From: Escherichia phage UPEC01
DNA: 64,000 nt
Reading direction: 5' to 3' (one strand)
Sequence record: MW233709
A program made the position numbers and the translations under genes. This document shows positions 2,469 through 63,839 of this stretch, piece after piece (position 1 is the first letter of the stretch; every line of letters starts with the position of its first letter). The notes beneath the pieces are model-generated. The model was not told where the DNA came from. It saw only the letters and a program-made list of their open reading frames with translations, and made no database searches.

Positions 2469-5183
2469 ATGCAAGAATTTTATTTAACTATCGAACAAAT
2501 CGGTGACAACCTACTCGAACGATATATTGACAAGAATGGTCATGAACGTGTTCGTGAAATCCCTTATGCTCCATGCTTGTTTATGCACGCCCGCGAAGAC
2601 CAAGCTGCAAAGTATACAGACATCTATAATAAAGGTTGTGTGAAAAAAGAATTCGATTCCATGCGTGATGCATCCCAGTGGATGAAGCGAATGAATGACA
2701 TGGGTCTCGAAGCTATGGGTATGGACGACTTTAAACTCGCATACTTGTCCGACCGTTACCCACACGAAATCAAATATGATTCAAGTAAAATCCGTGTTGC
2801 TAACTTCGATATCGAGGTGACATCTCCTGATGGGTTCCCTGAACCGTCTGAAGCACGTCACCCTATTGACGCCCTGACGCACTATGATTCGGTAGACGAT
2901 AAATTCTATGTCTTTGACCTTTTGGGCTCACCATACGCCACTGTGGAGCAATGGTCTATTGATATTGCTGCTAAGCTGCAGGAAGACGGTGGTGATGAAG
3001 TCCCGGAAGAAATCCTGGAAAAAATTGTTTATATGGCTTTCGATTCAGAAGAAGAAATGCTCCAGCAGTATTTGGTATTCTGGAACGAGAAAACTCCGGT
3101 TATGTTAACTGGTTGGAACATCGAGAAGTTTGATATTCCATATATCTACAACCGCCTTAAAAATGTATTTGGTGAAGCTACAGCAAAACGTCTGAGCCCA
3201 CATCGTCGTACAAAAGTTAAGGTCATTAACAACGGCTTTGGCGAAGAACAAGAAATCATTCAGATTCTGGGTATCTCTGTTCTGGATTATCTGGACCTGT
3301 ATAAAAAGTTCAGCTTCACAAACCAACCGTCTTATTCGTTGGATTATGTTGCGGAATCTGAACTGGGTGTTGGTAAACTCCCGTATGATGGCCCGATTTC
3401 TAAACTGCGCGAATCAAATCACCAGCGGTATATTTCTTATAACATCATCGACGTTTATCGTGTTGTGCAGATTGACCGTAAGCGACAGTTTATTAACCTG
3501 AGTCAGTCAATGGGTTATTACGCAAAAATGCAGATTCAGTCTGTATTCAGCCCAATCAAAACTTGGGATGCGATTATCTTTAACAGCTTGAAGACTCAAA
3601 ACAAAGTTATTCCGGAAACCAAATCGCATGTTCGCCAATCGTTCCCTGGTGCATTTGTTAAGGAACCTATTCCGAACGCATACAAATATGTAATGAGCTG
3701 TGACTTAACATCTCTGTATCCGAGCATCATCCGACAGATTAACATCAGTCCAGAAACGATTGCCGGGTCATTTGCGCCAGCCCAGATGTATGAATACATC
3801 GCAGGAACTGCTGACCGTCCATCTGATACATTTAGTTGTGCTCCAAATGGTATGATGTATTTTAAAGATGTTGCGGGTATTATTCCGACAGAAGTCACCA
3901 AGGTGTTTAATCAGCGTAAAGAGCACAAAGGCTATATGCTTGCGGCTCAACGTAATGGTGAACTGATTAAGGAAGCTCTGCGTAATCCAGGAACTGGCAC
4001 AACCGAACCAGAAGTTGATTATCGTCATGACTTTGATGACAATATGAAAACGACCCTGCATGGTCTGAATCAAACAGTCCTAAATGGTATGCTGTACAAA
4101 GCGCAGATGGAAGAAGTTGCAGGCATGACCGCACAGATTAACCGTAAACTGCTTATCAACAGTTGTTATGGCGCTCTGGGTAATATCTGGTTCCGTTACT
4201 TTGACCTGCGAAATGCAACCGCGATTACATCTTTCGGACAACTTGCACTGCAGTGGATTGAGCGTAAAGTTAACGAATACTTCGATAGTGTTTGTGGTAC
4301 AAGCGGTGAAACTTATGTGTTCTATGGCGATACTGACTCCATTTATATCCAGTGCGATAACCTGATTAAAAAGGTTGGTGGCGAATCTAAATTCCGCGAT
4401 ACAAACCACCTGGTTGACTTCATGGACAAGTTTGCGAAAGACCGTCTGGAACCGGCAATCGATAAAGCTTTCCGTGAGCTGGCTGAATACATGAACAACA
4501 AACAGCACCTTATGTTTATGGACCGTGAGGCGATTGCATGTCCTCCGCTGGGTTCGAAGGGTGTGGGTGGATTCTGGACGGCGAAGAAGCGTTATGCGTT
4601 GAACGTGTACGATATGGAAGGCACACGTTATGCTGTTCCAAAATTGAAAATCATGGGTCTGGAAACTCAAAAGTCGAGTACTCCAAAGGCATGTCAGAAA
4701 GCTCTGAAAGAATGCATCCGCCGTATGCTGCAAGAAGGTGAAGAATCTCTGCAGACATACTTCAAGGAATTCAATAAGGAATTTAATGAGCTTAACTACA
4801 TGACCATCGCAGGGGTATCATCGGTTAACAACATCCAGAAATATAATGAAGGTGGTTTCCCTGGATTTAAGTGCCCGGCTCATATCAAAGGTGTGCTTGC
4901 ATATATGCGTGCAACTAAAGGTCTGAAGACTGTTCCGCAAATCATGGAAGGGGAAAAGGTGTATGTACTTCCTCTTAAAGTCGGCAACCCATTTGGTGAA
5001 ACCGTGATTGCATGGCCATCAGGGATTGAACTCCCGATTGAAATTCGTGACCAAGTCTTGCAGTGGATGGACTACAACACACTGTTCCAGAAGACTTTTG
5101 TCAAACCGTTAACAGGTTTCTCTGAAGCTGCAAAGGTTGATTACGAAAAGAAAGCAACTCTTTTTGATATGTTTGACTTTTAA
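2469..5183 (+). CDS. 43: DNA polymerase gp43 (family B)
   Basis: 904 aa; exonuclease and polymerase motifs incl. YGDTDS, KKRYA, SLYPSII. Confidence 0.97.
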   Translation: MQEFYLTIEQIGDNLLERYIDKNGHERVREIPYAPCLFMHAREDQAAKYTDIYNKGCVKKEFDSMRDASQWMKRMNDMGLEAMGMDDFKLAYLSDRYPHEIKYDSSKIRVANFDIEVTSPDGFPEPSEARHPIDALTHYDSVDDKFYVFDLLGSPYATVEQWSIDIAAKLQEDGGDEVPEEILEKIVYMAFDSEEEMLQQYLVFWNEKTPVMLTGWNIEKFDIPYIYNRLKNVFGEATAKRLSPHRRTKVKVINNGFGEEQEIIQILGISVLDYLDLYKKFSFTNQPSYSLDYVAESELGVGKLPYDGPISKLRESNHQRYISYNIIDVYRVVQIDRKRQFINLSQSMGYYAKMQIQSVFSPIKTWDAIIFNSLKTQNKVIPETKSHVRQSFPGAFVKEPIPNAYKYVMSCDLTSLYPSIIRQINISPETIAGSFAPAQMYEYIAGTADRPSDTFSCAPNGMMYFKDVAGIIPTEVTKVFNQRKEHKGYMLAAQRNGELIKEALRNPGTGTTEPEVDYRHDFDDNMKTTLHGLNQTVLNGMLYKAQMEEVAGMTAQINRKLLINSCYGALGNIWFRYFDLRNATAITSFGQLALQWIERKVNEYFDSVCGTSGETYVFYGDTDSIYIQCDNLIKKVGGESKFRDTNHLVDFMDKFAKDRLEPAIDKAFRELAEYMNNKQHLMFMDREAIACPPLGSKGVGGFWTAKKRYALNVYDMEGTRYAVPKLKIMGLETQKSSTPKACQKALKECIRRMLQEGEESLQTYFKEFNKEFNELNYMTIAGVSSVNNIQKYNEGGFPGFKCPAHIKGVLAYMRATKGLKTVPQIMEGEKVYVLPLKVGNPFGETVIAWPSGIELPIEIRDQVLQWMDYNTLFQKTFVKPLTGFSEAAKVDYEKKATLFDMFDF

Positions 5184-5216
5184 GTGTTTACAACGGCAAT
5201 GGATTGCCGTATGATT
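5184..5216 (+). promoter_or_regulatory. early-type promoter (GTGTTTACAA ... TATGATTA)
   Basis: -35-like GTTTACA and -10-like element with ~17 bp spacer upstream of imm-like ORF. Confidence 0.45.
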
Positions 5217-5252
5217 ACCCCATCAACTGATGAATAACTTGAGGATATTAAA

Positions 5253-5495
5253 ATGGAAACATTAATTGCGGGTACTGTTGTTCTTGGTGCAGGTTCTTTC
5301 TTCCTGGCTGCACTGGCATATTTTCTGCCGTGGATTATCGCGCTACTGCGTGGAACCAAAAGTAATTGCGGAATCTTCTTTGTTAACCTCCTGTTAGGTT
5401 GGACAATGGTCGGATGGTTTATTGCATTTATCTGGGCACTCGTTGCTGAACGTAAATCAAACGCACAAGTAATTATCATCAAGGAATCAAAATGA
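5253..5495 (+). CDS. imm: superinfection-immunity-like small membrane protein (Imm-like)
   Basis: 80 aa, two hydrophobic segments, motif LLLGWTMVGWFIAFIWAL typical of superinfection immunity family; T4 imm position next to gene 43. Confidence 0.55.
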   Translation: METLIAGTVVLGAGSFFLAALAYFLPWIIALLRGTKSNCGIFFVNLLLGWTMVGWFIAFIWALVAERKSNAQVIIIKESK

Positions 5496-5554
5496 AGATA
5501 ATTACAATTATTGTATTGATTGCATTTTTAGTATGTCAATCTATTGGGCAATAA
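5492..5554 (+). CDS. tiny hydrophobic ORF (20 aa)
   Basis: ATGA overlap with previous stop; MKIITIIVLIAFLVCQSIGQ. Confidence 0.25.
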   Translation: MKIITIIVLIAFLVCQSIGQ

Positions 5555-5642
5555 TGACTCCACATATGATTCCAACTTTAATTTTGGGTTGGGTATTTTT
5601 GGGGCTCCAAGCCCGCTATGAATGTTTTAATTAGGAAGCAAA

Positions 5643-6146
5643 ATGAAAAAGTTAGCTATCGCAGCTGTTATGCTGCTATCTGGTTGTGCTTACCAGGGTG
5701 ATGTTGTTAATGCCAACGAGATTGGTAAAGCGCGAATTGCTGCAGACCGTCAGGTGCATAATGGTTCCTTTGATTTCAAAGGTGGTACTGGACTTATCTA
5801 CAAACGCGACAACAATCAATGTGGAAACAACTGCGCGAAATATGCTCAACAAGAAATTGAGTACAAACGCGAGCAAGCTGCGAAGCATGACGAAATCATT
5901 GCCAAGCTGGAAGCAGAAACCAAGCGACAAAATGACCTGGACACTGTTAACCAGATTTCACAGGTCTGCATGTCATACATCAATATGCAGATAAACATCA
6001 TGCGCGCAGAAGCTTATCAGGCAGCGGAGATGGGTTCTCCAAAAGCTAATGAGTACCGCGATATGTATCAGCGTTCTGCTCAAAACCGTCTGAGCTATAT
6101 TAATAAATGTGTAGCTAAAGAGAAAGCACGCCAAGGTATTAACTGA
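5643..6146 (+). CDS. putative lipoprotein
   Basis: Signal peptide with lipobox LLSGC (MKKLAIAAVMLLSGCAYQ), 167 aa. Confidence 0.6.
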   Translation: MKKLAIAAVMLLSGCAYQGDVVNANEIGKARIAADRQVHNGSFDFKGGTGLIYKRDNNQCGNNCAKYAQQEIEYKREQAAKHDEIIAKLEAETKRQNDLDTVNQISQVCMSYINMQINIMRAEAYQAAEMGSPKANEYRDMYQRSAQNRLSYINKCVAKEKARQGIN

Positions 6147-6253
6147 TGTTATTATTACTTCTGATTGTTGTAACAGTAATTGGTTTGCTGCTATTAGAAA
6201 AGCGTAATAAGCATTTGGCTGAAGAAAACTGGAAATGTGGTAACGTTTACTGA
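6146..6253 (+). CDS. small membrane protein (35 aa)
   Basis: ATGA overlap with lipoprotein stop; MLLLLLIVVTVIGLLLLEKRNK... Confidence 0.3.
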   Translation: MLLLLLIVVTVIGLLLLEKRNKHLAEENWKCGNVY

Positions 6254-6337
6254 GTTAATTGCTCTAAAAATACAGTGATATAATTATCCTATCTTAAACC
6301 TGTGAGAAAAATATAATGGTGCCTATGGAAAAAATGA

Positions 6338-7516
6338 ATGTCTATTGCAGATTTGAAATCCCGTTTGATTAAAGCTTCTACATCCAAAATGACTGCGACT
6401 CTTACCAAGTCCAAGTTCTTTAATGATAAAGATGTAGTTCGTACAAAAATCCCGATGCTGAACATTGCAATCAGCGGTGCACTAGATGGTGGTATGCAGT
6501 CAGGTTTGACTATTTTTGCTGGTCCGTCAAAACACTTTAAATCCAATATGGGTTTAACGATGGTCTCTGCATATATGAACAAATACCCCGATGCAATCTG
6601 TTTGTTCTATGATTCAGAATTTGGTATCACAGAAGCATATCTTCGTGCAATGAAAGTTGACCCGGAACGTGTTATCCATACACCAATCCAGTCGGTTGAA
6701 CAATTGAAAGTTGATATGGTTAACCAGCTTGAAGCAATTGAGCGTGGTGAAAAAGTCATTATCTTTATTGACTCAATCGGTAACATGGCGTCGAAAAAAG
6801 AAACAGAAGATGCGATGAACGAAAAAGTTGTTGGTGATATGACTCGCGCTAAATCCCTGAAATCTCTGTTCCGTATTGTTACCCCATATTTTAGTATCAA
6901 GGATATTCCTTGTGTCGCGGTTAACCATACAATTGAGACGATTGAGATGTACAGCAAAACCGTTATGACCGGTGGCACAGGTGTTATGTATTCCGCAGAC
7001 ACCGTATTCATTATCGGCAAACGCCAGATTAAAGAAACTGGTAAAGAACTTGAAGGCTTCCAATTTGTTCTGAACGCCGAAAAATCTCGTATGGTCAAAG
7101 AGAAAAGTAAATTCTTCATTGATGTAAAATTCGATGGGGGTATTGACCCGTATTCTGGCCTGCTTGATATGGCAATGGAAATCGGATTTGTGGTGAAACC
7201 AAAAGTTGGTTGGTATAACCGTGAATATCTTGATGTTGAGACCGGCGAAATGGTCCGCGAAGAAAAATCATGGCGCGCAAAAGATACTAACTGCACCGAA
7301 TTCTGGGGTCCGCTGTTCAAGCACGAACCTTTCCGTGATGCAATTAAACGCCATTACCAACTGGGTGCAATCGATAGCAATGCTGTTGTTGATGCTGAAG
7401 TTGATGCGCTTATTGCCTCCAAGGTTGAAAAATACTCTGCTCCTGAAGGTAAGACAAAACCGTCCGCTGCAGATATCGAAAACGATTTAGATATGATGGA
7501 AGACCTTGATGAATGA
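6338..7516 (+). CDS. uvsX: recombinase UvsX (RecA-like)
   Basis: 392 aa, very high similarity to T4 UvsX (FAGPSKHFKSN Walker A, KDTNCTEFWGPLFKH). Confidence 0.97.
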   Translation: MSIADLKSRLIKASTSKMTATLTKSKFFNDKDVVRTKIPMLNIAISGALDGGMQSGLTIFAGPSKHFKSNMGLTMVSAYMNKYPDAICLFYDSEFGITEAYLRAMKVDPERVIHTPIQSVEQLKVDMVNQLEAIERGEKVIIFIDSIGNMASKKETEDAMNEKVVGDMTRAKSLKSLFRIVTPYFSIKDIPCVAVNHTIETIEMYSKTVMTGGTGVMYSADTVFIIGKRQIKETGKELEGFQFVLNAEKSRMVKEKSKFFIDVKFDGGIDPYSGLLDMAMEIGFVVKPKVGWYNREYLDVETGEMVREEKSWRAKDTNCTEFWGPLFKHEPFRDAIKRHYQLGAIDSNAVVDAEVDALIASKVEKYSAPEGKTKPSAADIENDLDMMEDLDE

Positions 7517-14198: not shown

Positions 14199-14717
14199 AT
14201 GGCACATTTTAACGAATGTTCTCAACTGATTGCTGGTGTTGATAAAGCTCAAGGCGCTTATGATAATGCAATTTTTGAAGGCACTGACCCACTGCAAATT
14301 ATGCTTGATATGCAGAAATCGTTGCAGGTTCGTCTGGCTAAAGAAAAACCAGAATATAACGAACATCCTGATAACCTGGCGACTGCTGGTGAAGTTGTTA
14401 CCTGGCTCCGCAACCAGAAAGATTATATTGATGATGAATTCCGTGAACTGATTACTGCATTAGGTGGCATGTCCAATGGCGAGAAAGCTGCCTCGGCCGT
14501 ATGGAAGCCTTGGAAAGCACAACATGGCGAAATGCAGCAAACCCTAATTAATGATTTATCTCCTGAAGACCAGCTCGAAATTAAATTTGAGATGATTGAT
14601 ATCCTGCACTTTGTTCTGAATATGTTCCATGGCCTTGGACTGACTGCAGAAGAAATCTTTAAATTGTATTACCTGAAAAATGCTGAGAACTTTGCTCGTC
14701 AAGACCGAGGTTATTAA
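14199..14717 (+). CDS. 56: dCTP pyrophosphatase gp56 (MazG-like dCTPase/dUTPase)
   Basis: 172 aa; MAHFNEC...EIFKLYYLKNAENFARQDRGY strongly T4 gp56-like; track start 14181 is a TTG. Confidence 0.85.
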   Translation: MAHFNECSQLIAGVDKAQGAYDNAIFEGTDPLQIMLDMQKSLQVRLAKEKPEYNEHPDNLATAGEVVTWLRNQKDYIDDEFRELITALGGMSNGEKAASAVWKPWKAQHGEMQQTLINDLSPEDQLEIKFEMIDILHFVLNMFHGLGLTAEEIFKLYYLKNAENFARQDRGY

Positions 14718-31174: not shown

Positions 31175-31444
31175 ATGATTAAGCATTTCAATGTGTCAGA
31201 CCGTGACATCAAAGTTTCAAATCTCCGGGGTCACCATTACGCAGGAATAGTTTACTGTGGTAAGCTCATTAAGCATGAAGGTGATGTTCACTATGGCTGG
31301 TTGGAATGTGATGAAGTAGTTGTTGGGGAATTCCCTGACCCGGATTCTGATACATTTGATGCTAATGACCGTTTGTACTATGGCGAGCTTCATATCCGAG
31401 GAATCGTCGGTATCGATGAGGTTCAAGATGATTCAGAAGAGTAA
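31175..31444 (+). CDS. hypothetical protein (89 aa)
   Basis: ORF. Confidence 0.45.
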   Translation: MIKHFNVSDRDIKVSNLRGHHYAGIVYCGKLIKHEGDVHYGWLECDEVVVGEFPDPDSDTFDANDRLYYGELHIRGIVGIDEVQDDSEE

Positions 31445-32021
31445 AACATGGGAGCATCTGAAAAAGATGCCCTCCTTTCTTTATACAAAGGAAGACTTAA
31501 CCCCCGAATCCCTGCAAAAGATTGTAGATACAGCCAGGTATTCATTGCGTAAAGACCCGGGTCAGGACCGTGAGCAAGTCATGCAAAGATGTATGGTGGC
31601 TACAATGGCTGAACAAGCTATTGCTAAATGGACTTCAGGTTTTTTATGCGGCGGCGACGAAGATTACGATAATCCTTATTCCTTTGCATTTGATGTAGTT
31701 TCGAAAGAAGGGGTGAGAATCGAAGTCAAGACACATCAATCTGGCTCCAAATGGATATCCGTGCATACTGGTCACCAGGGTGATTATCCACATGGTTACG
31801 GGGTCAATCTTGGTCCTTTTATGCAACACAAGCTTGCCGACCTTATGATTATGTTCAATGTAAAAGAGACTATCAAAGGGTATAGATTTAAACCAAAATT
31901 CCTTGCTGGACCTGGTGCTTTCGTTCCTGAGTCTGGTCTTGTGCAGAAGTCACAAGGGGATGGCTGGTACCTCCGTTCTTGTTCAGAAGAAAAATTTCCC
32001 TATCACCGGTTTACAAGCTGA
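31428..32021 (+). CDS. putative PD-(D/E)xK-like nuclease (DenB/endonuclease IV candidate by position)
   Basis: 197 aa from ATG 31428; FAFDVVSKEGVRIEVKTHQ resembles D...E.K motif; T4 denB lies next to rIIB. Confidence 0.4.
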   Translation: MIQKSKTWEHLKKMPSFLYTKEDLTPESLQKIVDTARYSLRKDPGQDREQVMQRCMVATMAEQAIAKWTSGFLCGGDEDYDNPYSFAFDVVSKEGVRIEVKTHQSGSKWISVHTGHQGDYPHGYGVNLGPFMQHKLADLMIMFNVKETIKGYRFKPKFLAGPGAFVPESGLVQKSQGDGWYLRSCSEEKFPYHRFTS

Positions 32022-34057: not shown

Positions 34058-34507
34058 ATGACTACTTACATGACCCGTCGTGACGTACTGAATGCTGGTG
34101 CTACCACTGTTGCTTATATCCATAATGGTAATTATGTTGCCGGTCGCCCAACTAAAGAAGCTATCGCTCAACCAGGTTTTTATTTCGTGGTTAAAGGTGA
34201 AGGCGAATCACGTATTGTTGCTGCACGTTTTTATGTTGGTAACCAACGTTCACAACAAGGGTTTGACACTGTATTAAGTCACATCCGCAAACAACGTTCA
34301 CAATTGTCTCGCACAATGGCGAACAATGGTGTTATCTATGAAGTCCTGTTTGTTCCAGTTTCTAAAATGAAACCCCTGACAACTGGTTATGGTAAAGGTC
34401 AAATTGCGATGGCGTTCACTCGCTCACATAGTTCTGATTGCCAGACCCTTTCAGAAATGAATCGCATGCTTGCTGATAACTTTAAATTCATTCTGCAGAG
34501 CTATTAA
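34058..34507 (+). CDS. hypothetical protein (149 aa; Ndd candidate by size/position)
   Basis: T4 ndd (151 aa) lies between denB and stp/ac; sequence not verified. Confidence 0.4.
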
Positions 34508-37475: not shown

Positions 37476-37485
37476 GGAAATTGTT

Positions 37486-37662
37486 ATGAACATCTATCTG
37501 ATTAAGTACCTAAAAGATGGTAAAGAACGTGATTACCAAATCCCCGCAAAAAATGAATATGATGCGTGTGTTCGCCTTGGTCAGATTCATGGTGATGACC
37601 GTGAATATCGCAATGATGTTGAAATTGAAATCCAATCTGTAACTTTGAAAGTGAGAGGCTAA
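37486..37662 (+). CDS. hypothetical protein (58 aa)
   Basis: ORF with GAGGAAA RBS. Confidence 0.35.
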   Translation: MNIYLIKYLKDGKERDYQIPAKNEYDACVRLGQIHGDDREYRNDVEIEIQSVTLKVRG

Positions 37663-37664
37663 TC

Positions 37665-37997
37665 ATGAATAAGCTGAATATTGTTAATGAATTGCGCGCT
37701 TGTGTAGAACCTACTCAAGAGGGTTGGGATGTTTGGTATCATGGCGCTTACCTTGGAACTATTGTCAAGGTCAAAGCTGGTCAGTATCTTATCCATCGTC
37801 AGGATGATGCAGTAGCTCCGTTTGGTGCACGCAAGAACTTCATGGCAGCGATTGGTGCCTTTGTTCCAGCAGCATATGAAGTATATAAAGCTGACTATAA
37901 AGAATACCAGGAATCACAACCAGTTATTCGCTCAATTGGTGTTAATAAAGCTCAACAGAAAAGTCTGTGGCAACGTGTTAAAGGTTGGTTCAAATGA
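37665..37997 (+). CDS. hypothetical protein (110 aa)
   Basis: ORF. Confidence 0.45.
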   Translation: MNKLNIVNELRACVEPTQEGWDVWYHGAYLGTIVKVKAGQYLIHRQDDAVAPFGARKNFMAAIGAFVPAAYEVYKADYKEYQESQPVIRSIGVNKAQQKSLWQRVKGWFK

Positions 37998-38332
37998 TTC
38001 CTATGGAACTAAACTGGGATGGCGAAGGCCATTCCCTTAAATTGATTGAAGAGCAACGTAACGCTTGGGATGAGCGCTGTGCCTTGGTGAATGGTATTAA
38101 GGTAATTTATAACCTTCATCTCCAGATTGATAATGTTCCTCTTGAGTTTGGTATGCAGTTATCACGTTTTCTTGAGATTATTACTATAGAAAAAGTATCC
38201 ATAACTTCGTATGGTGTATGCCAAACAGTTGATATCAAATTGACTTCTTCTGACAAAGGCGAGTTGATTGGTATTGGTGATAAAATTCATGAATTCGTGA
38301 AATATAATGGTTATAAGGTGATTATCAAATGA
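37994..38332 (+). CDS. hypothetical protein (112 aa)
   Basis: ATGA-coupled start. Confidence 0.45.
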
Positions 38333-38817
38333 ATCCATTAAAAGGTAAAGCATTATCCTTTAAAGAACGGATGACCTTGTTAGATAAAGCTCTTTCTCGT
38401 GAGACTCCTGAAAGTCTCGCTGCTAAATTACAGGCATATGGTGATTACACTGAATATACCGAAGAAGACGTTCTGAAAGAAGTCCCAGAAATCTGTTGGC
38501 AGATTGCACATTGGAATAACAATGAAAAATATCAGCGACGGATTGTATGTGCAGCTAACCGCTTTAAGCTAAAAGATGGTGGGACTCTGGTTATTCCTGG
38601 AGCCAGACATTATTCAAAAGATATGGCAGAAGTGCTTGACCAGGTAAGTGATAAACTTGTGTCAGACCATGTTTGTGGTGATAATCAAGGATTTATTGAC
38701 CAATACAGCAATTACTGGACCCGCGAAGAAGCAATGATTATTGCGACTTATGCAAATCAGGTGCGCATTGAACGTGGCGGTAGTGAGAAAGAACTTTATT
38801 CAGAGGACCTTTACTAA
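38329..38817 (+). CDS. hypothetical protein (162 aa)
   Basis: ATGA-coupled ORF. Confidence 0.5.
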
Positions 38818-39095
38818 TGAATCTTAAGCAACTCCAGATTGATGCAATCGAAAACCATATTAATCATATCAAACGTCTGAACACCATGATGGAAGACAAT
38901 TGGGGAACTTATGTCAACCAACCCGGTTGGGATGCTTTAGACCATGAATATATAAAGGATATTAGTGATAACACATATAGAGTTAGAGAAGGCCTGAAAC
39001 CCTTCCTGCGTGATATGTATATTGCAACAAATAAAGCAATTATTAACTATCTTGAATACCAATTAAGGGAATTGCATGAACAATCTTGTAGCTAA
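38817..39095 (+). CDS. hypothetical protein (92 aa; arn-position candidate)
   Basis: Same length as T4 Arn and located between motA and asiA; only mildly acidic, unverified. Confidence 0.4.
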   Translation: MNLKQLQIDAIENHINHIKRLNTMMEDNWGTYVNQPGWDALDHEYIKDISDNTYRVREGLKPFLRDMYIATNKAIINYLEYQLRELHEQSCS

Positions 39096-39184
39096 ACACG
39101 ATTTCAATAAGGCGTCTGTCCATAAGGACAAGAAGAAAACAGAAATGCAGTCCAAACGTAAGCAGAAGCACAAGGGGAATCACT

Positions 39185-39349
39185 ATGAGTCATAATTTAG
39201 AGAACGCCATCACTGGTCAGCGTATACGCGAGCAAGAGTGCTTTGATGAATTCCTTGGGGCTGATTTTAAGTTCCAGGAACCAATTGAAGATATGTATCA
39301 GACATATGCTGCACAGATGGAAAATCATGTGTACAACCCAGAGGAATAA
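39185..39349 (+). CDS. hypothetical protein (54 aa)
   Basis: small ORF. Confidence 0.3.
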   Translation: MSHNLENAITGQRIREQECFDEFLGADFKFQEPIEDMYQTYAAQMENHVYNPEE

Positions 39350-39407
39350 TAGTACAATATCCTTACTGAATAATTGAATGTCTTATTGAATACTTGAGTA
39401 AATTAAA

Positions 39408-39683
39408 ATGACTAAATTTGAAATCGTTTCTGAAATTGTTACTGTAACTTCAATTTTGATTAAAACCGACCGGGAAGATATTACGATGAAGCGTGATGTG
39501 TTTATCGCGTTTTTGAATGAGTTGGGATTGAGGAATGAGAATGGGAATGAGTTAAACAACGTATCGTTTAACAAGTTGTTTAAAAGTTTATCTGAAGATG
39601 AAATTGAACAAATCATTGAACAATTTAACGAAGGATTCGAAGATATACATCGTTATCTTATGATGTATACCTCCGGATTCTAA
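39408..39683 (+). CDS. asiA: anti-sigma70 factor AsiA
   Basis: 91 aa; VTSILIKTDREDI...FIAFLNELG...FNEGFEDIHRYLMMYT aligns with T4 AsiA. Confidence 0.85.
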   Translation: MTKFEIVSEIVTVTSILIKTDREDITMKRDVFIAFLNELGLRNENGNELNNVSFNKLFKSLSEDEIEQIIEQFNEGFEDIHRYLMMYTSGF

Positions 39684-40333
39684 CGTGTACGTCCGAGCGT
39701 ACGACCTGCTTGTCCACACATAGCAGAAAGCCTATCAAAACCAAGGTTAGGTTTTTGCTTATACCAGTACAGTGAGACTGTACCTGCATAAACGTTCTCT
39801 AGATTAAAGAATGGGCAGCTGAACATATATTCGAAGCTGCTTTTTTTCTTTGTTGGTAAGAATACAGATTCCGTACCGGATTCAAAATAATTACCATTAA
39901 CCCCTGCCAAATATTCCGCTGAAGTCTTATCTATTGGAAACCCACCCAAATTTTTCTCGTCGACTGATTCAGGTAATATCCCCTCGTACCCCACCATATC
40001 CACGAAGTAGTTAAGGTTAGTTGGTCTAAAAGAATATATCGCTGTAAAGTCAGCTCCGCTTGATGAGTGAACTATCTGGATTTGCTCGATAGCTGCAATT
40101 TTAAATCTGTTATCCTGGTCTTGCCTTATCATTTCTGTGTACGAGGCATATGAAGCATCCCTATACGCATCTAAAATTGCATCACCTTTATACCAGATTA
40201 CCGCCATTAAAAATAATAGAACAATAACTAGTACCCGGGAAAAGACAACTTTCCCGGTCGCATTATCTTTAAAAATTCTATCAAGAAGTCCAAAAAGTAG
40301 GTCGGGGATTGAGATTCCTACTTTTGGTTCCAT
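39680..40333 (-). CDS. t: holin T
   Basis: 217 aa; LLFGLLDRIFKDNATGKV, single N-terminal TM, C-terminal ...CGQAGRTLGR as T4 holin. Confidence 0.9.
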   Translation of the reverse strand: MEPKVGISIPDLLFGLLDRIFKDNATGKVVFSRVLVIVLLFLMAVIWYKGDAILDAYRDASYASYTEMIRQDQDNRFKIAAIEQIQIVHSSSGADFTAIYSFRPTNLNYFVDMVGYEGILPESVDEKNLGGFPIDKTSAEYLAGVNGNYFESGTESVFLPTKKKSSFEYMFSCPFFNLENVYAGTVSLYWYKQKPNLGFDRLSAMCGQAGRTLGRTR

Positions 40334-40351
40334 ACTTTTCTCCTTTAAAGA

Positions 40352-40359
40352 TATTTATA
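40352..40359 (-). promoter_or_regulatory. late promoter TATAAATA (minus strand) for t
   Basis: tatttata on + strand 20 nt upstream of t start. Confidence 0.5.
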
Positions 40360-40370
40360 GCGCAAAAGTA

Positions 40371-41144
40371 TTATAGCCAGGAGCCATAGATAGTGCCTGT
40401 AGCACCCCATGTCGGTGAACTTCCGAATACTGCTCTACCAGGAGCACCACCCCCCGACCTGGATAAGTGATTGCCCCATCCGTCGCCACCAGCGCCACCT
40501 GCATCACCTCCATTACCACCGCCAAATTGACTTGTATTACCACCACCACCTGGGCCGTCATAACTAGCATTACCGCCAGGCCAATTAACGCCACCGCCGC
40601 CGAGACCAAATGGTCGACCGCCTCCCCCACCTGCGGTAGAATTTGCAGGCCAACTATTCTGTAATGATACGGCACCGCCGCCGCCACCACCAGAGGCTAT
40701 CACACCATAATTCCAAATGCGAAGTCGTCCACCAATATCATTTTGGATTACGTCGCCACCATTAGTGCCTGGGCTTCCATTTACGCTACCATTACCACCA
40801 CGGCCCCACATATGAACGCCACCATGAATATTCAAAGTAACATATTCGTTAGGGGTATCACCGTACATAAAGAACAACGGAACATCTTTAGTATATGATA
40901 CTAAGTTGCCTGTGATATTAAACACTATAGGAGCACCGCCGGCTTCAAAACAACGGTCACGGAACCATTGACCATTAAAGTTATGGTCAGCTCCAAGAGT
41001 GTGAATTACTTCAACAGAACGGCCGTTCATATTGCTCATCCAAAACGGAATGCTCATTCTTAATCGTTGGGCCGCTCCACCCATCCAATTTTGTCCTGTA
41101 TTAGCTACTGCAGACCCTCCAACCCACGGTCCTACTACTGCCAT
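40371..41144 (-). CDS. 38: gp38 tail-fibre adhesin, T2-type with glycine-rich motifs
   Basis: 257 aa from MAVVGPW; conserved N-terminus ([22 protein letters not shown]) plus multiple poly-Gly motifs separated by variable segments. Confidence 0.85.
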
Positions 41145-41175
41145 ATAAACCTCCAAGGGGCCGAAGCCCCTCTTA

Positions 41176-44100
41176 TTATTTCAACAATGATTTAACTAAT
41201 TTTTTAAGCTCTTCAATCTCTGATTTAAGTTCTGCAATTTCTGCAGTATGCTCGTTGATTGCAGCTGTATTTAAACCAATTACACCGTTATAGTTCAAAC
41301 GAAGTAAAGCTTCACCATCCAGGTCGCCTTCAACTAATTCTGGTAAAATAGCTTGAACTTCTTGAGCTATCAAACCAGCGTTAGGTTCCCATTTCTGATT
41401 ACCTTCTTCATCTGTTCCACGTTTCTGCATATAAGTGTAACCGTTAATTTTAGAAAGCTTCTCAGAAGCATTTTCAAATTTAACGAGGTTCTTTTTAACA
41501 CGAATATCAGAGCGGACATAAACATCACGGACATACGTTGAATAGCTGTCATTCGCCTGAACTAAATGACCATGAGAAACGATAGCTCTTCCGGTTTCTG
41601 TCCAAAAAGCACCAGTTGAATCCCAAAGTCCAGGATGAGATTGATAGCCTGCGCCCCAGCTTGCAATATGTATACTATTGGCAACCATGTTAATTCGACC
41701 ATCACCACCGTGTGATAAGCCTGTATCGTTGTCACCGATGGCGATACTCGGAGTGCCAAGTCCGTTAACAGTACCAACACCGATTGCAGGAGTTTGAATC
41801 AAAGTAGGGCTATAGAATAGTCCAGACGAATGGAATTCAAAAATACCTACAGGCCCATCGCCGCGCTCGGCATTACCTACTCGAATTATAGCTTGTCCCC
41901 AGGCTTGTGGTGTACGTCTAATACCAAGGTCAACAGAAGTAGTATATCCTTGACCAGTAATTACAGAACGGCCTTTAATAATAGGATAATAACTATCTTC
42001 GCCAACGCTACCAAAATCAAGGAAATAAGGTGCTTCTAAGCCCCATTGGTCGCCCCACGCACCAGATTTACGCGCAACCCAGTGAGCACCGTTCATATGA
42101 ATTCGGTCACGGTTTATATTGAATATACTAGTGCCCTGTGGAGATAGAATAACTTCACCGTTAGGGTTGATATTAATACCGCCTTGAGATTGGAAACTCC
42201 AGAAGGCAAGTCCGTTATCAGCACCGCCATTACCGACATACCAGTTATCAGCACCACCTTTTTTACCCTTAACATAGCCCGCTTCATCTGCTGGATAATC
42301 AATAACAACAGCATCCGAGTTGGTTTTAAGAGTTAAACGTCCGGTCATCGTGTCGCCTTCTTTTGAAACACGAGTAGCTATTGCATCGCGAATATTTGTA
42401 GTGTCTCCTGCTGAAGTGAACGTTTTCCAGATATCAGAGAAGATGTTACCATTTTTAGCAATAGTAGCTTCACCACCACCAACCTGAACATTATCGGGGA
42501 AGTTAACTGTACCATCAGCATTAAATCTTGAGGTATGGGCTTGTGTTCCATCTTCTTTAAGATGATGAATAACGAATGTACCTGAATTAATTTCAGTACC
42601 TAAAGACCAAACAGCTTTACCGTTTAAAAACTTCTGTTTGACAATCGGATAATATTTACTTACAGCGTCATCATCAATTTCTTGGAAAATAGGAGCAGCC
42701 TGGCCGTATTGAATATCATATCCACCTGCGCCTGCGCCGTGTCCACCAAATTTAATAAAACCATTTTCAGCAAAAGTTGTATGGCTCAAATCTAGGTCCG
42801 GAATAACCACCTTACCAGTATCTAAAGCCAAACTAAACGGGCGAAGTGGACCGATGTCCCCGGTTTTACCCTCACCAAAGGCTGTTGGAATAATATGAAG
42901 ACTTCCTTCTGAACGACGGAAAATAGCGGCGTAATCGTCGTTCCAAATTCTAAGAGCATTGACCGCATTACCAGCAATAGTGCCGGAGACGTTAACTTCC
43001 TGACCGACATTTATACTTTCGTTTACGCCCAAAGTTCCATTTAAATGGCTTTGAATAGAACCTGAAGTCAGACGTTGATAATATTGAATCCAGCTAGTGT
43101 CATCAGATATTTCCATTACGTTTTTACGGTCGCCATCAACATTAGCAAAGGTATTACCCCAAACGCTGATAGTCATATTATCAACTGAACTATTTCCTGT
43201 AGTATTTCCTTTGAACAACAGAGTAGATGCATTGTTGCGGCCGTCGATATTAACCGAACCGCCGATAACATTAATATCACCTGGAGTAACTAACAATCCG
43301 CCAGCGGTGTTAACGTTTGTAGTGCCTTTACCACGGAAATAGTGGTGGTAATTACCGCCTTGGTAATAACCCAAAAGAGTTTGACCATCACCGTATGCGT
43401 TATTATCATGGTAAGTAACTACAGTTGCCAGAGCATAGTTTTCAGCCGGAGGAGTAGTCAAATCAGTACCATTTACAGAATAACCCATAACCATTTTTCT
43501 AAGACTAGTAGTTTCCGCCGGACCGGAAAGGAAAGTTTTTGTACCGTTGTTTACCGTAAAAAAATATCCATCTTGATGCCATTTAAATCCGGTGTCATTA
43601 TCACCGAGGGCAATTGAAGCTGTTCCTAATTCAGAATATCCTTTGGGGCCGCCTGGGGTGCCTATAGAAATGGAATGGCCCGCTTTCAATCCACCAGACC
43701 ATGTAAACGACCATAGATAGGCCTCTAACCCGTCGCCAGCGTACCAAGTTATTCCATCATTATCTTTAACTTCATGGAAAATACCAGCTCCTACCGCATT
43801 GCGCATCGAACGAAGATGGTTAATTGCTGTTTCGCTTTCGGTTAAAGGAGTGTTGTCAGCCATTGAATAGATATCATAATCACCATCTTTCTTAGCATTG
43901 GTAATAACTTTATCAGTCATAACTGTCGGCGATGAAATAGATTTCCAAGCATTAACTATAGGAGAGGTCAAAATACCATCACCGGAGAAAGAATAGCTGT
44001 GCTCACCGCCTGCTGCGTAATCTTGTACTCGAATATTAACTACCTGGGTTGTCAAACCGGCATTATTTGGAGAAAAGATAATCCCACGTTCACGGTCATT

Positions 44101-55301: not shown

Positions 55302-57077
<1,776 letters not shown>

Positions 57078-57078
<1 letters not shown>

Positions 57079-60268: not shown

Positions 60269-61447
60269 ATGAGTACAGTTTTTAATACCACTCCAGTGGA
60301 TGTTTTAGCCGAGCCGATGTTCTTCGGTTCTGGATTGGGGATTGCACGTTATGATATCCAGCGCCATAAAGTTTTCGAAGAATTAACAGAAAAGCAATTA
60401 TCATTCTTCTGGCGACCTGAGGAAGTCAACCTGATGATGGATGGAGCTCAATTTAATAAGCTTCCTGAACATCAACAAAATATTTTTACCAACAACCTGA
60501 AATACCAATCACTTCTGGATAGTATCCAGGGTCGTGCTCCAGCTGCAGCATTAGCCGCATTAGTTTCTGACCCGAGTCTTGATACATGGATTCAGACCTG
60601 GACATTCAGCGAGACAATTCACTCTCGTTCTTATACGCACATCATGCGAAATCTCTATACGGACCCGGCGAAGGTATTCGACGAAATCCTGTTAGATGAT
60701 GCAATCATGAAGCGCGCAGAATCCATTGGTCATTACTATGATGATGTTCTGAATAAAACTCGTCAATGGCAAAACCAGATTGCTTTTGTTGAACTGGCCA
60801 AAGAAACTCCCGAAGCGGACGAACGTTTGGAACGAGCTATCAAACAAGAAGCTATCGCCAAACGAGCATTGATGAAGTCTCTTTATCTCTGCCTGCATGT
60901 TATTAACGCCCTGGAAGCTATTCGTTTTTATGTATCTTTTGCATGTACTTTCAACTTCCATAAGAACATGGAAATCATGGAAGGTAATGCGAAGATAATG
61001 AAGTTCATCGCCCGTGATGAACAGCTCCACCTTAAGGGGACCCAATATATTCTTCGTCAGCTGCAAACTGGTGTTGACGGTGACGAATGGGTTAAAATCG
61101 CACACGAATGTGAAGCAGAAGCCGCAGCCATTTTCATGGAAGTTAATCGCCAGGAAAAAGAATGGGCCGTGCATCTGTTTAAAGATGGTGGGCTCCCTGG
61201 GTTGAGCGTCGAGATTCTTAACCGGTTCATCGATTACCTGACGGTTTCTCGTATGAAGCAATGTGGTCTCCCTTGTGAAATCGTGTTAGAATCTACTAAG
61301 CACCCGATTCCATGGATTCGCGAATATCTTAACTCTGATAATGTGCAATCTGCACCACAAGAAGTTGAGTTGTCTGCTTACCTGGTAGCCCAGATTGACA
61401 ATGACGTCGATGAGAATGTTCTTGCTGGTTTCCGTAAATATCTATAA
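60269..61447 (+). CDS. nrdB: ribonucleotide reductase small subunit NrdB (intronless)
   Basis: 392 aa continuous ORF with di-iron/tyrosyl radical motifs (FSETIHSRSY, EGNAKIM.FIARDEQLH). Confidence 0.95.
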   Translation: MSTVFNTTPVDVLAEPMFFGSGLGIARYDIQRHKVFEELTEKQLSFFWRPEEVNLMMDGAQFNKLPEHQQNIFTNNLKYQSLLDSIQGRAPAAALAALVSDPSLDTWIQTWTFSETIHSRSYTHIMRNLYTDPAKVFDEILLDDAIMKRAESIGHYYDDVLNKTRQWQNQIAFVELAKETPEADERLERAIKQEAIAKRALMKSLYLCLHVINALEAIRFYVSFACTFNFHKNMEIMEGNAKIMKFIARDEQLHLKGTQYILRQLQTGVDGDEWVKIAHECEAEAAAIFMEVNRQEKEWAVHLFKDGGLPGLSVEILNRFIDYLTVSRMKQCGLPCEIVLESTKHPIPWIREYLNSDNVQSAPQEVELSAYLVAQIDNDVDENVLAGFRKYL

Positions 61448-61473: not shown

Positions 61474-61884
61474 ATGAAACAAATCGCTGATGAATACAGT
61501 TTTATAAAATACGCGGAGTTAGAGTTAGTCGATGGTAAAATCCCTATTCTTACTCTCGCGAACAAGAAAAATGTTATCTATGCTATTTCAGTTGATGATG
61601 AACTAGTGTATATTGGTAAGACGAACAACCTTAAGAAGCGTATCAACTATTACCGGACTGCGATTAACCGAATCGACCAGACGAGCGATTCAAACAAATC
61701 CCGGATGATACATGAAGCTTTACAAGAAGGTAAAAAGGTGGTATTCTATGCACGACAATGTTTCAATCTGTCAATGACCAATGAACTTGGCACAATGTCA
61801 GTCGAAACGATGTCTCTGGAAGAGCCGATGTTCATCAAGCTTTTTAATCCCCCGTGGAATTACCAACATAAGGTGAAGAAATGA
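61474..61884 (+). CDS. denA: endonuclease II (DenA), GIY-YIG family
   Basis: 136 aa from ATG 61474; VIYAI...VYIGKT (GIY-x9-YIG), ...ARQCFNLSMTNELGTM...FIKLFNPPWN as T4 DenA. Confidence 0.8.
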   Translation: MKQIADEYSFIKYAELELVDGKIPILTLANKKNVIYAISVDDELVYIGKTNNLKKRINYYRTAINRIDQTSDSNKSRMIHEALQEGKKVVFYARQCFNLSMTNELGTMSVETMSLEEPMFIKLFNPPWNYQHKVKK

Positions 61885-63088: not shown

Positions 63089-63322
63089 ATGTTAAACTTA
63101 ATTACAAATGAAAGAGTTACACAGGCATATGGTGACAGTAATGACGGAATCTATGTCTACAAGGGAGACCGCCGGATTGGTTTCATTACTGACCTGAAGG
63201 CCAAATTGTTAAAAGAACTGAAAGCTCAAACAGGTGATTCTGGGTTTAGAGCAAGAGCCAAAAAGAAAGATGAACGCCTGGGTGCCAACTCTTTTGGTCC
63301 CCGGGGTTACAACCGCTACTAA
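63089..63322 (+). CDS. hypothetical protein (77 aa), paralog of N-terminus of next ORF
   Basis: YGDSNDGIYVYKGDRRIGFITDLKAKL vs YGDRHDGIYVYKGTKKIGLMTDLRKKL. Confidence 0.45.
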   Translation: MLNLITNERVTQAYGDSNDGIYVYKGDRRIGFITDLKAKLLKELKAQTGDSGFRARAKKKDERLGANSFGPRGYNRY

Positions 63323-63335
63323 TGAGGAAAATATT

Positions 63336-63839
63336 ATGGATATGCAACTGATTTCAAATGAAATGATTGTCAATGAATATGGTGACCGTCATGACGGAAT
63401 TTATGTCTATAAAGGGACCAAGAAAATTGGTCTCATGACTGACTTGCGGAAAAAACTCGCCTCCGATAAAAAGTTGAAGGCGAAACAAAAAGAATATCGT
63501 GATAAAAAATCAGAAGAGCGGAAAGAAGCACTGCATGAATCTGTTCCTGAAATGGTTGACTTCTTAAAGAACCATTTGGTTAAATATGATGCAGAAGTGT
63601 TCATCAATCAGACCCAACCTAATGTGCATATCAATGGATGTGTTTGTTATGTTGTGGTTGAACCCCTGACACTTCAACACCGTCTGGGAATTAAACACCC
63701 AGTGTTGACCCAGGATGATATGGCGGATGAAGTTGGTAATCAGTTCCGCATTTCAGCATCTGACAGTACAAATCACATCCTCCTGAATGGTTTATCCCAG
63801 GATGATATTGTTGAGGTAATCATCAAGTTATGCAAATAA
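63336..63839 (+). CDS. Alc-like protein (by size and position)
   Basis: 167 aa from ATG 63336 (same length as T4 Alc), directly after gene 63 as in T4; sequence unverified. Confidence 0.45.
   Translation: MDMQLISNEMIVNEYGDRHDGIYVYKGTKKIGLMTDLRKKLASDKKLKAKQKEYRDKKSEERKEALHESVPEMVDFLKNHLVKYDAEVFINQTQPNVHINGCVCYVVVEPLTLQHRLGIKHPVLTQDDMADEVGNQFRISASDSTNHILLNGLSQDDIVEVIIKLCK

Follow-up and report, generated by a model that had tools for sequence, protein, structure and literature searches.

An Asp177-type thymidylate synthase homolog as a candidate cytosine-modifying enzyme of Gapriverviruses with an empty modification-island site

We analysed a stretch of 64,000 nucleotides from Escherichia phage UPEC01 (MW233709), here called the window, with two subjects in view: the interval between gene 43 and uvsX, where phage T4 carries gene 42 and the beta-glucosyltransferase gene, and td, which encodes a thymidylate synthase (TS) homolog with a changed specificity residue. 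The window belongs to the genus Gaprivervirus (Straboviridae, Tevenvirinae), as positions 2469-7516 are 99.9% identical to Escherichia virus TH41 (MT446412.1) and 94-98% identical to SP18, VR7, VR20, VR26, and other members of the genus. The interval 5184-6337 begins right after the gene 43 stop and ends right before the uvsX start; together with its borders, it holds the following features, given with lengths in amino acids (aa) and including two small open reading frames (ORFs).

2469-5183, plus strand: gene 43, DNA polymerase, the left border (904 aa; 78% identity to gp43 of phage JS98; gp43 also in the SP18 and VR7 annotations)
5253-5495, plus strand: imm, superinfection immunity membrane protein (Pfam PF14373 Imm_superinfect, 1e-17; phrog_1039, 1.9e-30)
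5533-5634, plus strand: hydrophobic 33-aa ORF, homolog of T4 42.1, JS98 gp044, and RB69 orf054c (phrog_3610, 1e-21)
5643-6146, plus strand: predicted lipoprotein of 167 aa, JS98 gp043 family (phrog_1754, 4.7e-47; no Pfam match)
6040-6274, no strand: apparent empty site of the cytosine-modification island (4.46 kb in JS98, gp042-gp038; 42, beta-gt, and segA in T4)
6146-6253, plus strand: hydrophobic 35-aa ORF without family match, within the segment that has no JS98 counterpart
6338-7516, plus strand: uvsX recombinase, the right border (392 aa; 72% identity to JS98 UvsX)

The T4 order at the same position is 43, imm.1, imm, 42, b-gt, segA, uvsX. The window Imm, with 52% identity to T4 Imm and 68% to JS98 Imm, is a member of the Imm_superinfect family at the T4 imm position; the 33-aa ORF has tblastx matches to the T4 imm-42 stretch and to JS98 gp044; the 167-aa protein carries a lipoprotein signal with the lipobox MKKLAIAAVMLLSGC (LLSGC, residues 11-15) and is 52% identical to JS98 gp043; and about 85 bp separate the 35-aa ORF from uvsX, directly upstream of the latter. 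The sequence-only reading had described just such an interval, with an Imm-like protein, small hydrophobic ORFs, a 167-aa lipoprotein, and a 35-aa peptide, and had stated that gene 42 and beta-gt are not at their T4 position. The ORFs and the Imm profile match agree with this description, and the gene content and a tblastn search of the whole 64-kb window with T4 gp42 and beta-gt, which returned only noise (E of at least 1), bear out the statement.

The DNA alignment to JS98, a Dhakavirus, is colinear on either side of gp042-gp038 (window 5101-5943 and 6274-6481), with about 230 bp in the window where JS98 holds 4.46 kb. Because the flanks are colinear and the content differs in this way, the 43-uvsX interval is, judged from the alignment, the standard cytosine-modification island site of T4-like phages, empty in Gaprivervirus. 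The earlier comparison with T4 gene 42 and beta-gt thus holds for the site, but the closest counterpart is the 4.46-kb Dhakavirus island for arabinosyl-5-hydroxycytosine. According to the notes of the JS98 record, gp042-gp038 are counterparts of RB69 orf052c, 051c, 045c, 048c, and 047c, comprising sugar-nucleotide enzymes, a kinase, and a 5-hydroxy-deoxycytidylate (5-hydroxy-dCMP) synthase. The latter, JS98 gp039 (L011:4960-5658), was named a gene 42 allele in older literature; it has only 25% identity to T4 gp42, and its RSQN...QLD residues correspond to N169 and D177, the 5-hydroxy-dCMP synthase signature.

The sequence-only reading had left two alternatives: a location of the modification genes elsewhere in the genome or a different modification strategy of the phage. 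It had called for a whole-genome search for homologs of gene 42 and glycosyltransferases. We ran this search on the complete genomes of TH41 (170,556 bp) and VR7 (169,285 bp), using tblastn (E <= 1) and phmmer on all six-frame ORFs of at least 50 aa. No homolog of T4 gp42, beta-gt, or JS98 gp038-gp042 was found in either genome, whereas the same search recovered Imm, gp044, and gp043 at the expected place. In the hand-curated VR7 annotation, too, 42, a-gt, b-gt, and arn are missing, and 56, alc, denA, denB, ndd, cd, gene 1, frd, and td are present. The genus-specific ORFs scanned in VR7 gave no match to a base-modifying domain, be it of a methyltransferase, a glycosyltransferase, or another type; they are homing-endonuclease-like or without family match: ORF006c has an Endonuclease_7 domain, ORF135c and ORF292c have AP2-like domains, ORF148c matches T5orf172/MUG113, and ORF136c matches DUF7275/7277. 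VR7ORF147c, described in GenBank as similar to cytidine/deoxycytidylate deaminase, was rejected as a modification enzyme, having neither the H(C)xE...PCxxC motif nor a Pfam match and belonging to phrog_9997 of unknown function. VR7ORF134c (VR7 locus L008:14937-15623, outside the window; 228 aa, phrog_1843, similar to RB69 ORF132c, no Pfam match) contains GYHHDD ... CHTWHTG, loosely like an HxD...H metal-binding motif. The complete VR7 annotation also shows arn.1 to arn.4 only, without arn, and has neither nrdD/nrdG (anaerobic ribonucleotide reductase) nor dam.

Despite the empty site, the window carries the genes that in T4 are tied to cytosine-modified DNA.

14199-14717, plus strand: gene 56, dCTPase/dUTPase homolog (phrog_173, 4.3e-46; Pfam dUTPase_2, PF08761, 2e-6, and PRA-PH, PF01503; 56 is also in VR7)
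31428-32021, plus strand: denB, endonuclease IV homolog (phrog_1360, 3.1e-80)
34058-34507, plus strand: ndd, nucleoid disruption protein (Pfam PF06591, 8.5e-69)
61474-61884, plus strand: denA, endonuclease II homolog with a GIY-YIG domain (77% identity to JS98 DenA)
63089-63322, plus strand: 77-aa ORF like the N-terminal third of Alc (Pfam ALC, PF17527, 7.3e-11, model positions 3-62; phrog_17715, 2.9e-53)
63336-63839, plus strand: alc, inhibitor of transcription of cytosine-containing DNA, 167 aa (PF17527, 1.4e-48; phrog_1253, 2.5e-73)

The profiles place gp56 in the all-alpha nucleoside triphosphate (NTP) pyrophosphohydrolase family; its proposed role would be to remove deoxycytidine triphosphate (dCTP) and to supply dCMP. 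The window Alc covers model positions 1-176 of 177 of its family profile and is 48% identical to JS98 Alc. T4 DenB is a dC-specific single-stranded DNA nuclease. Its window homolog, a member of the same family with 46% identity over 178 aa (2e-58), retains Ser176, which is required for dC-specific cleavage (PMC2175332). The presence of dCTPase and of candidate Alc and DenB-like genes, as noted from the sequence alone, is therefore genuine, all three being full length by their profile matches. The 77-aa ORF adjoins alc upstream and has a VR7 counterpart, VR7ORF243c; it could have arisen by partial duplication of alc or encode a separate small protein like Alc.

This combination has been published as a paradox. 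Nikulin & Zimin (2021, PMC8056088) noted that Gapriverviruses have no known enzyme for a non-canonical base, yet carry DenA, DenB, Alc, and dCTPase; they proposed "an unknown protein" as the modifier. Known modification enzymes are missing across the whole genus in two published surveys (PMC8056088; PMC12115623), and a recommendation on therapeutic use was withheld (PMC8056088; PMC12115623). Since the paradox is in print (Nikulin & Zimin 2021, 2025), the finding at the 43-uvsX interval restates a known question. Experimental evidence comes from VR7, whose DNA was tested for restriction in the presence and absence of T4 beta-glucosyltransferase (Gordeeva 2019, PMC6326788): VR5 and T4 were glycosylated, T4 147 was hydroxymethylated, and "VR7 has modified cytosines", being listed separately and as non-glycosylated. 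Like non-glycosylated phages, VR7 was fully blocked by BREX (PMC6326788).

A possible answer to the paradox lies in td, which directly follows and overlaps frd.

55640-56221, plus strand: frd, dihydrofolate reductase (64% identity to JS98 Frd; its stop overlaps the td start)
56218-57078, plus strand: td, Asp177-type TS homolog, predicted dCMP 5-methyltransferase (Pfam PF00303 Thymidylat_synt, 4.6e-91)
56776-56778, plus strand: GAC codon of Asp187, equivalent to E. coli position 177 (AAT, Asn, at the same place in JS98)

The window Td is a member of the TS superfamily, covering model positions 1-266 of 266 of PF00303, and its residues 1-286 align end to end with the structure of T4 Td (PDB 1TIS; 5.7e-128). 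Its motif PFDIGSY takes the place of PFNIASY, the motif of both T4 Td and E. coli ThyA. In canonical TS, Asn177 (E. coli numbering) hydrogen-bonds O4/N3 of deoxyuridylate (dUMP) and excludes dCMP. The invariant Asn177 of the canonical dUMP-specific enzyme (EC 2.1.1.45) is absent from the window Td, and the canonical catalytic set (Cys146, the phosphate-binding R21, R126', R127', and R166, and others) is present. In comparison with E. coli ThyA, residues R21, E58, W80, Y94, R126, R127, L143, C146, H147, Q165, R166, S167, D169, H207, and Y209 are kept; besides residue 177, only A179G and A182G are altered near the base-binding pocket. No TS-superfamily ORF other than td was found in the complete genomes of TH41 and VR7.

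An N177D TS prefers dCMP and makes 5-methyl-dCMP, according to Hardy & Nalivaika (1992) and Liu & Santi (1992) as cited in PMC8670742 and PMC13326640. The published rules for the product hold that a hydrophobic L143 gives methyl, L143D/E hydroxymethyl, and D169N 5-hydroxy (PMC13326640). With D177, L143, and D169, the window Td has the three signature residues of the dCMP 5-methyltransferases (the type of phage XP12 and of TS N177D, EC 2.1.1.54), and the published criteria predict a 5-methyl-dCMP synthase from this combination. The window Td does not resemble the T4 gp42 hydroxymethylase, having no gp42-family match and L143 instead of L143D/E, nor the 5-hydroxy-dCMP synthase of the RB69 gp48 type, defined by D169N, N177D, and L143E, as it retains D169 and L143. 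Because L143 is hydrophobic and not Asp/Glu, the predicted product carries a methyl and not a hydroxymethyl group. The overlap of frd and td also fits an enzyme that still produces dihydrofolate, since reductive methylation yields dihydrofolate; the product of a hydroxymethylase would be tetrahydrofolate. In annotated records, all but one of the Asp177-type td genes are named "thymidylate synthase" or "dTMP synthase"; for phage 212, the name under the match is "dihydrofolate reductase".

We compared the window Td with its 120 best database homologs. All four cluster representatives of the Gaprivervirus clade (86-99% identity) have PFDIGSY, as does VR7 Td, whereas the Td proteins of 115 other Tevenvirinae (Tequatrovirus, Klebsiella and Salmonella T4-like phages, and Dhakavirus phage Bp7) have PFNIASY in 114 cases and PFNCASY in one. 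The remaining homolog, P0070 from a metagenomic T4-like contig, has PFDIASY. A 43-residue peptide around the Asp occurs unchanged in 22 Gaprivervirus records and with 88-98% identity in another 10, giving 32 in total; the next-best records, from other genera, reach 84%. Among 149 diverse TS cluster representatives, the motif was readable in 135, with 129 Asn, 5 Asp, and 1 Ser, in a library of representatives at 50% identity where Gaprivervirus Td clusters with T4-type Td so that the two types are not separated. Asp177 recurs with L143 and D169 in the Acinetobacter phages 133 and ZZ1, one of the two stretches being MRSVDVPLGMPFDIASY; both motifs were read by alignment to E. coli ThyA.

Phage 133, L012:30516-31463: Asp177-type td
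Phage ZZ1, L013:26659-27591: Asp177-type td

The same paradox holds for these two phages, which were reported to be without gene-42-type enzymes and to have alc, denB, 56, and cd (Nikulin & Zimin, PMC8056088); phmmer found no gp42-type ORF in the 10-95 and 110-160 kb segments of phage 133 or in the 116-166 kb segment of ZZ1. The Aeromonas phages AS-szw, AS-zj, and Asswx_1 were also reported to carry alc and denA without a known modification enzyme. RB49 serves as the control: its Td has Asn177, its sampled stretch has no gp42-type gene and no annotated alc, and Krischvirus (RB49) was reported to be without alc and denB and to be transducing (PMC12115623; PMC8056088). The residue at position 177 is distributed as follows.

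T4-type phages and Dhakavirus (RB69 left out): dedicated dCMP-modifying TS homolog, yes; alc/denB, yes; Td residue 177, Asn
RB49: dedicated dCMP-modifying TS homolog, no; alc/denB, no (PMC12115623); Td residue 177, Asn
Gaprivervirus, phage 133, and ZZ1: dedicated dCMP-modifying TS homolog, no; alc/denB, yes; Td residue 177, Asp

In a neighbour-joining tree, Gaprivervirus Td is sister to the Asn-type Td of coliphages and lies apart from the Acinetobacter pair, which argues that the change from Asn to Asp arose more than once. Horizontal transfer of a dedicated methylase was rejected here on the same tree, in which the Asp-type enzymes arose several times and form no single clade.

Judging from these sequences, the Asp177-type Td has probably been redirected to dCMP, and the phage would fill its DNA with 5-methylcytosine in place of the lost modification genes. 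In the pathway that we propose, gp56 would hydrolyse dCTP and dCDP to dCMP, which the Asp-type Td would reductively methylate to 5-methyl-dCMP with methylene-tetrahydrofolate, while Frd, whose gene overlaps td, would recycle the dihydrofolate. The product of gene 1 (gp1) and the host nucleoside diphosphate kinase (Ndk) could then raise 5-methyl-dCMP to 5-methyl-dCTP for incorporation by gp43, and the resulting 5-methylcytosine DNA might be spared by the phage DenB, DenA, and Alc, which would attack the cytosine DNA of the host. Cytosine methylation reportedly blocks the action of Alc (Kashlev 1993, as cited in PMC8056088). Thymidylate (dTMP) might be supplied by Cd, through deamination of 5-methyl-dCMP, by host ThyA, and by salvage through thymidine kinase (Tk) and the breakdown of host DNA. 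Such a strategy would correspond to the second alternative of the sequence-only reading, a different kind of modification, which gains support from the Asn177-to-Asp switch and from the modified, non-glycosylated cytosines reported for VR7. By a narrow balance, we favour the wider claim that Gapriverviruses and, independently, phages 133 and ZZ1 might be the first T4-like phages with complete 5-methylcytosine replacement through a converted sole TS that feeds both pyrimidines; they would also need a defence against McrBC, McrA, and Mrr that has so far escaped recognition.

Several points weigh against this proposal. The main caveat is that McrA, McrBC, and Mrr of E. coli K-12 attack 5-methylcytosine DNA. 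The Gaprivervirus isolate vB_EcoM_RZ lists K-12 as a host and arn is missing from the VR7 annotation, so that an additional anti-restriction function would be required; with 5-methylcytosine DNA, the absence of arn would matter owing to the threat from McrBC. The pathway also presumes that gp56 spares 5-methyl-dCTP, that gp1 phosphorylates 5-methyl-dCMP, and that DenB ignores 5-methylcytosine. In the searchable literature, we found no enzymology or nucleoside analysis for Gapriverviruses, phage 133, or ZZ1, and the restriction evidence for VR7 says "modified cytosines" only (PMC6326788). The faster divergence of Td from Dhakavirus that might be expected was not observed, the identities to JS98 being 69% for Td, 64% for Frd, 60% for RnlA, 80% for NrdB, and 90% for NrdA; because Td is no more diverged from JS98 than its neighbours, there is no rate signal of a changed function. 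Finally, a gene 42 allele was listed for phage 133 by Petrov et al. (2010, PMC2993671, Table 4), against which stand the RefSeq annotation of this phage, our search of its 10-95 and 110-160 kb segments, and Nikulin & Zimin (2021), none of which contains one.

Instead of Td, an enzyme outside the TS family might modify the cytosines, possibly after replication, with the substitution in Td being secondary. This published suggestion of "an unknown protein" is in line with the many ORFs of unknown function that remain, and we regard it as unlikely. The genus-specific ORFs scanned showed no base-modifying domain, a post-replicative route would expose nascent cytosine DNA to DenB and Alc and would need dCTP although gp56 destroys it, and this reading would explain neither the Asn-to-Asp change nor why it recurs in phages 133 and ZZ1. 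It is also rather unlikely that the Asp-type Td acts on dCMP but yields a product other than methyl, such as hydroxymethyl, or that the methyl group is processed further in the DNA. The link between L143, D169, and the product is a correlation rather than a rule, and VR7ORF134c with its HxD...H-like motif has no assignable function; however, L143, D169, Y94, E58, and H147 are those of a true TS, the retained and overlapping frd fits the dihydrofolate from reductive methylation, no glycosyltransferase was found in TH41 and VR7, and, following the test with T4 beta-glucosyltransferase, VR7 was not grouped with the hydroxymethylated control (PMC6326788).

The DNA might instead be ordinary cytosine DNA if gp56, Alc, and DenB had drifted to harmless or different functions, with gp56 acting, for example, as a dUTPase only, and if the Asp in Td were tolerated or conferred dual specificity. 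Phages of the RB49 and RB43 types indeed keep gp56 and DenA with unmodified, transducible DNA (PMC8056088), and the window Alc has no more than 48% identity to that of JS98. We nevertheless find this explanation very improbable, as the cytosines of VR7 were reported to be modified (PMC6326788), Alc and DenB are full length with Ser176 of DenB kept, Asn177 is otherwise near-invariant among the readable TS cluster representatives, and RB49, which is truly of that type, has an Asn-type Td and is reportedly without alc and denB (PMC12115623). A simple rearrangement, with gene 42 and the glycosyltransferases elsewhere in the genome of about 170 kb, has next to no probability even though the window covers only 64 kb of it and the arabinosyltransferase of RB69 relatives lies outside the 43-uvsX interval (PMC8056088), as the searches of complete TH41 and VR7, the VR7 annotation, and the two genus-wide surveys (PMC8056088; PMC12115623) all speak against it.

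Like that of XP12, the modification proposed here would take place at the mononucleotide level from dCMP, and a complete replacement of cytosine by 5-methylcytosine is therefore predicted. XP12 is an unrelated siphovirus of Xanthomonas, and its enzyme is itself a TS-family protein. The deoxycytidylate 5-methyltransferase of XP12 and the total replacement by 5-methylcytosine were described by Kuo & Tu (1976, as cited in PMC13326640). Unlike in XP12, the enzyme in the window is the resident T4-type Td, with about 65-70% identity to T4-type Td; it is placed within the T4 network that comprises dCTPase, Alc, DenB, DenA, and Ndd, without a separate dUMP-specific TS. With T4 gene 42, the proposed system would share the depletion of dCTP, the C5 alkylation of dCMP by an Asp-bearing TS fold, and the destruction or silencing of cytosine DNA. 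The window Td differs from T4 gp42 in having no detectable similarity and a hydrophobic L143, and there would be no sugar transfer, which fits the BREX sensitivity of VR7. We propose that the Asp177 Td could combine dCMP methylation of the XP12 type with the T4 network against cytosine DNA.

In RB69, gp48 is a 5-hydroxy-dCMP synthase, and the island to which it belongs builds arabinosylated 5-hydroxycytosine; Dhakaviruses are among the carriers (PMC13326640, 2026). The window shares with RB69, DLP3, and Dhakavirus the same imm-uvsX site and, with JS98, the flanking imm, gp044, and gp043, but the whole JS98 gp038-042 island is missing and D169N does not occur in the window Td. The substitution is identical to the single change on a canonical scaffold in the engineered N177D TS of E. 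coli and N229D TS of L. casei, as reported in PMC8670742 and PMC13326640; unlike in these mutants, it is natural, fixed genus-wide, and accompanied by A179G and A182G. Natural Asp177 variants were also tied to modified-cytosine DNA by MetaGPA (PMC8670742), on anonymous metagenomic contigs, whereas the present phages are cultured, widely used T4-like coliphages in which the gene is annotated as thymidylate synthase. In the searchable literature, which cannot prove newness, we found neither 5-methylcytosine nor an Asp177 Td reported for Gaprivervirus, VR7, or any T4-like phage. The paradox is thus already known, and the Asp177 Td as a candidate answer appears to be new.

A one-residue reading of an already annotated gene could thereby provide a concrete candidate answer to a published paradox. 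If true, it would imply a systematic functional mis-annotation in the annotated records among the 32 Gaprivervirus genomes and in phage 133 and ZZ1. With 5-methylcytosine DNA, the sensitivity of these phages to McrBC, Mrr, MspJI-type enzymes, BREX, and CRISPR would differ from that of T4; bisulfite and enzymatic methyl (EM-seq) sequencing, whose conversion step 5-methylcytosine resists, and nanopore sequencing would behave differently; the risk of transduction would likely be low because host DNA would be destroyed and excluded; and the phages could supply fully 5-methylcytosine DNA from an E. coli host. The T4 network for discriminating self from host DNA (gp56, Alc, and DenB) might then be modular with respect to the chemical mark, with hydroxymethyl-glucose, hydroxy-arabinose, or methyl swappable by the loss of an island and one point mutation.

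Further Asp177-type enzymes were seen in metagenomic contigs. The P0070 contig (L015, SRR24146912_91236; td at 3953-4831) has frd.2, frd, and td in the T4 order, and P0070 shares many residue states that are otherwise specific to Gaprivervirus, yet has an identity of only 67%, which suggests a further uncultured T4-like lineage of the Asp type. P0175, an Asp177-type TS of 449 aa, occurs in 20 metagenomic contigs of an unrelated PolA-type phage (L020 and L021, 8001-9350 and neighbours), with a dCMP deaminase directly downstream and a PRA-PH/MazG-like NTP pyrophosphatase nearby. This neighbourhood follows the same logic as gp56, Td, and Cd, with the same enzyme trio in an unrelated phage. Gln165 is replaced by Met in four Asp-type enzymes (phages 133 and ZZ1, P0157, and P0175) and is kept in Gaprivervirus Td, P0070, P0142, P0169, P0222, all four Asn-type phage Td aligned, and E. 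coli ThyA. Residue 165 adjoins residue 177 in the TS active site, and Gln165Met may be a secondary adaptation.

For the 167-aa lipoprotein of the 43-uvsX interval, the homolog search returned close relatives only, and its AlphaFold model, confident for the C-terminal helical bundle only, has a mean predicted local distance difference test (pLDDT) score of 65.9, which is too weak for a fold search. Over its entire length, the window follows a T4-like gene order: 44, 62, regA, 43, imm ... uvsX, 40, 41, 61, 56 ... 39, rIIA, rIIB, denB, ndd, 52, motA, and asiA, followed by t, 38, and 37-34 on the minus strand and lastly by rnh, 59, 32, frd, td, nrdA, nrdB, denA, rnlA, and alc. It is about 97-99% identical to TH41, save for a segment at ~37.5-43.9 kb. 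This segment (37480-43864), which spans the arn.x ORFs, gp38, and the gp37 distal tail fibre, has either only 91% identity to TH41 or no match and is, by its sequence, a mosaic host-range module. The window also spans the ends of the TH41 record, where 353 bp (window 60370-60722) occur at both ends, representing either an assembly overlap or terminal redundancy.

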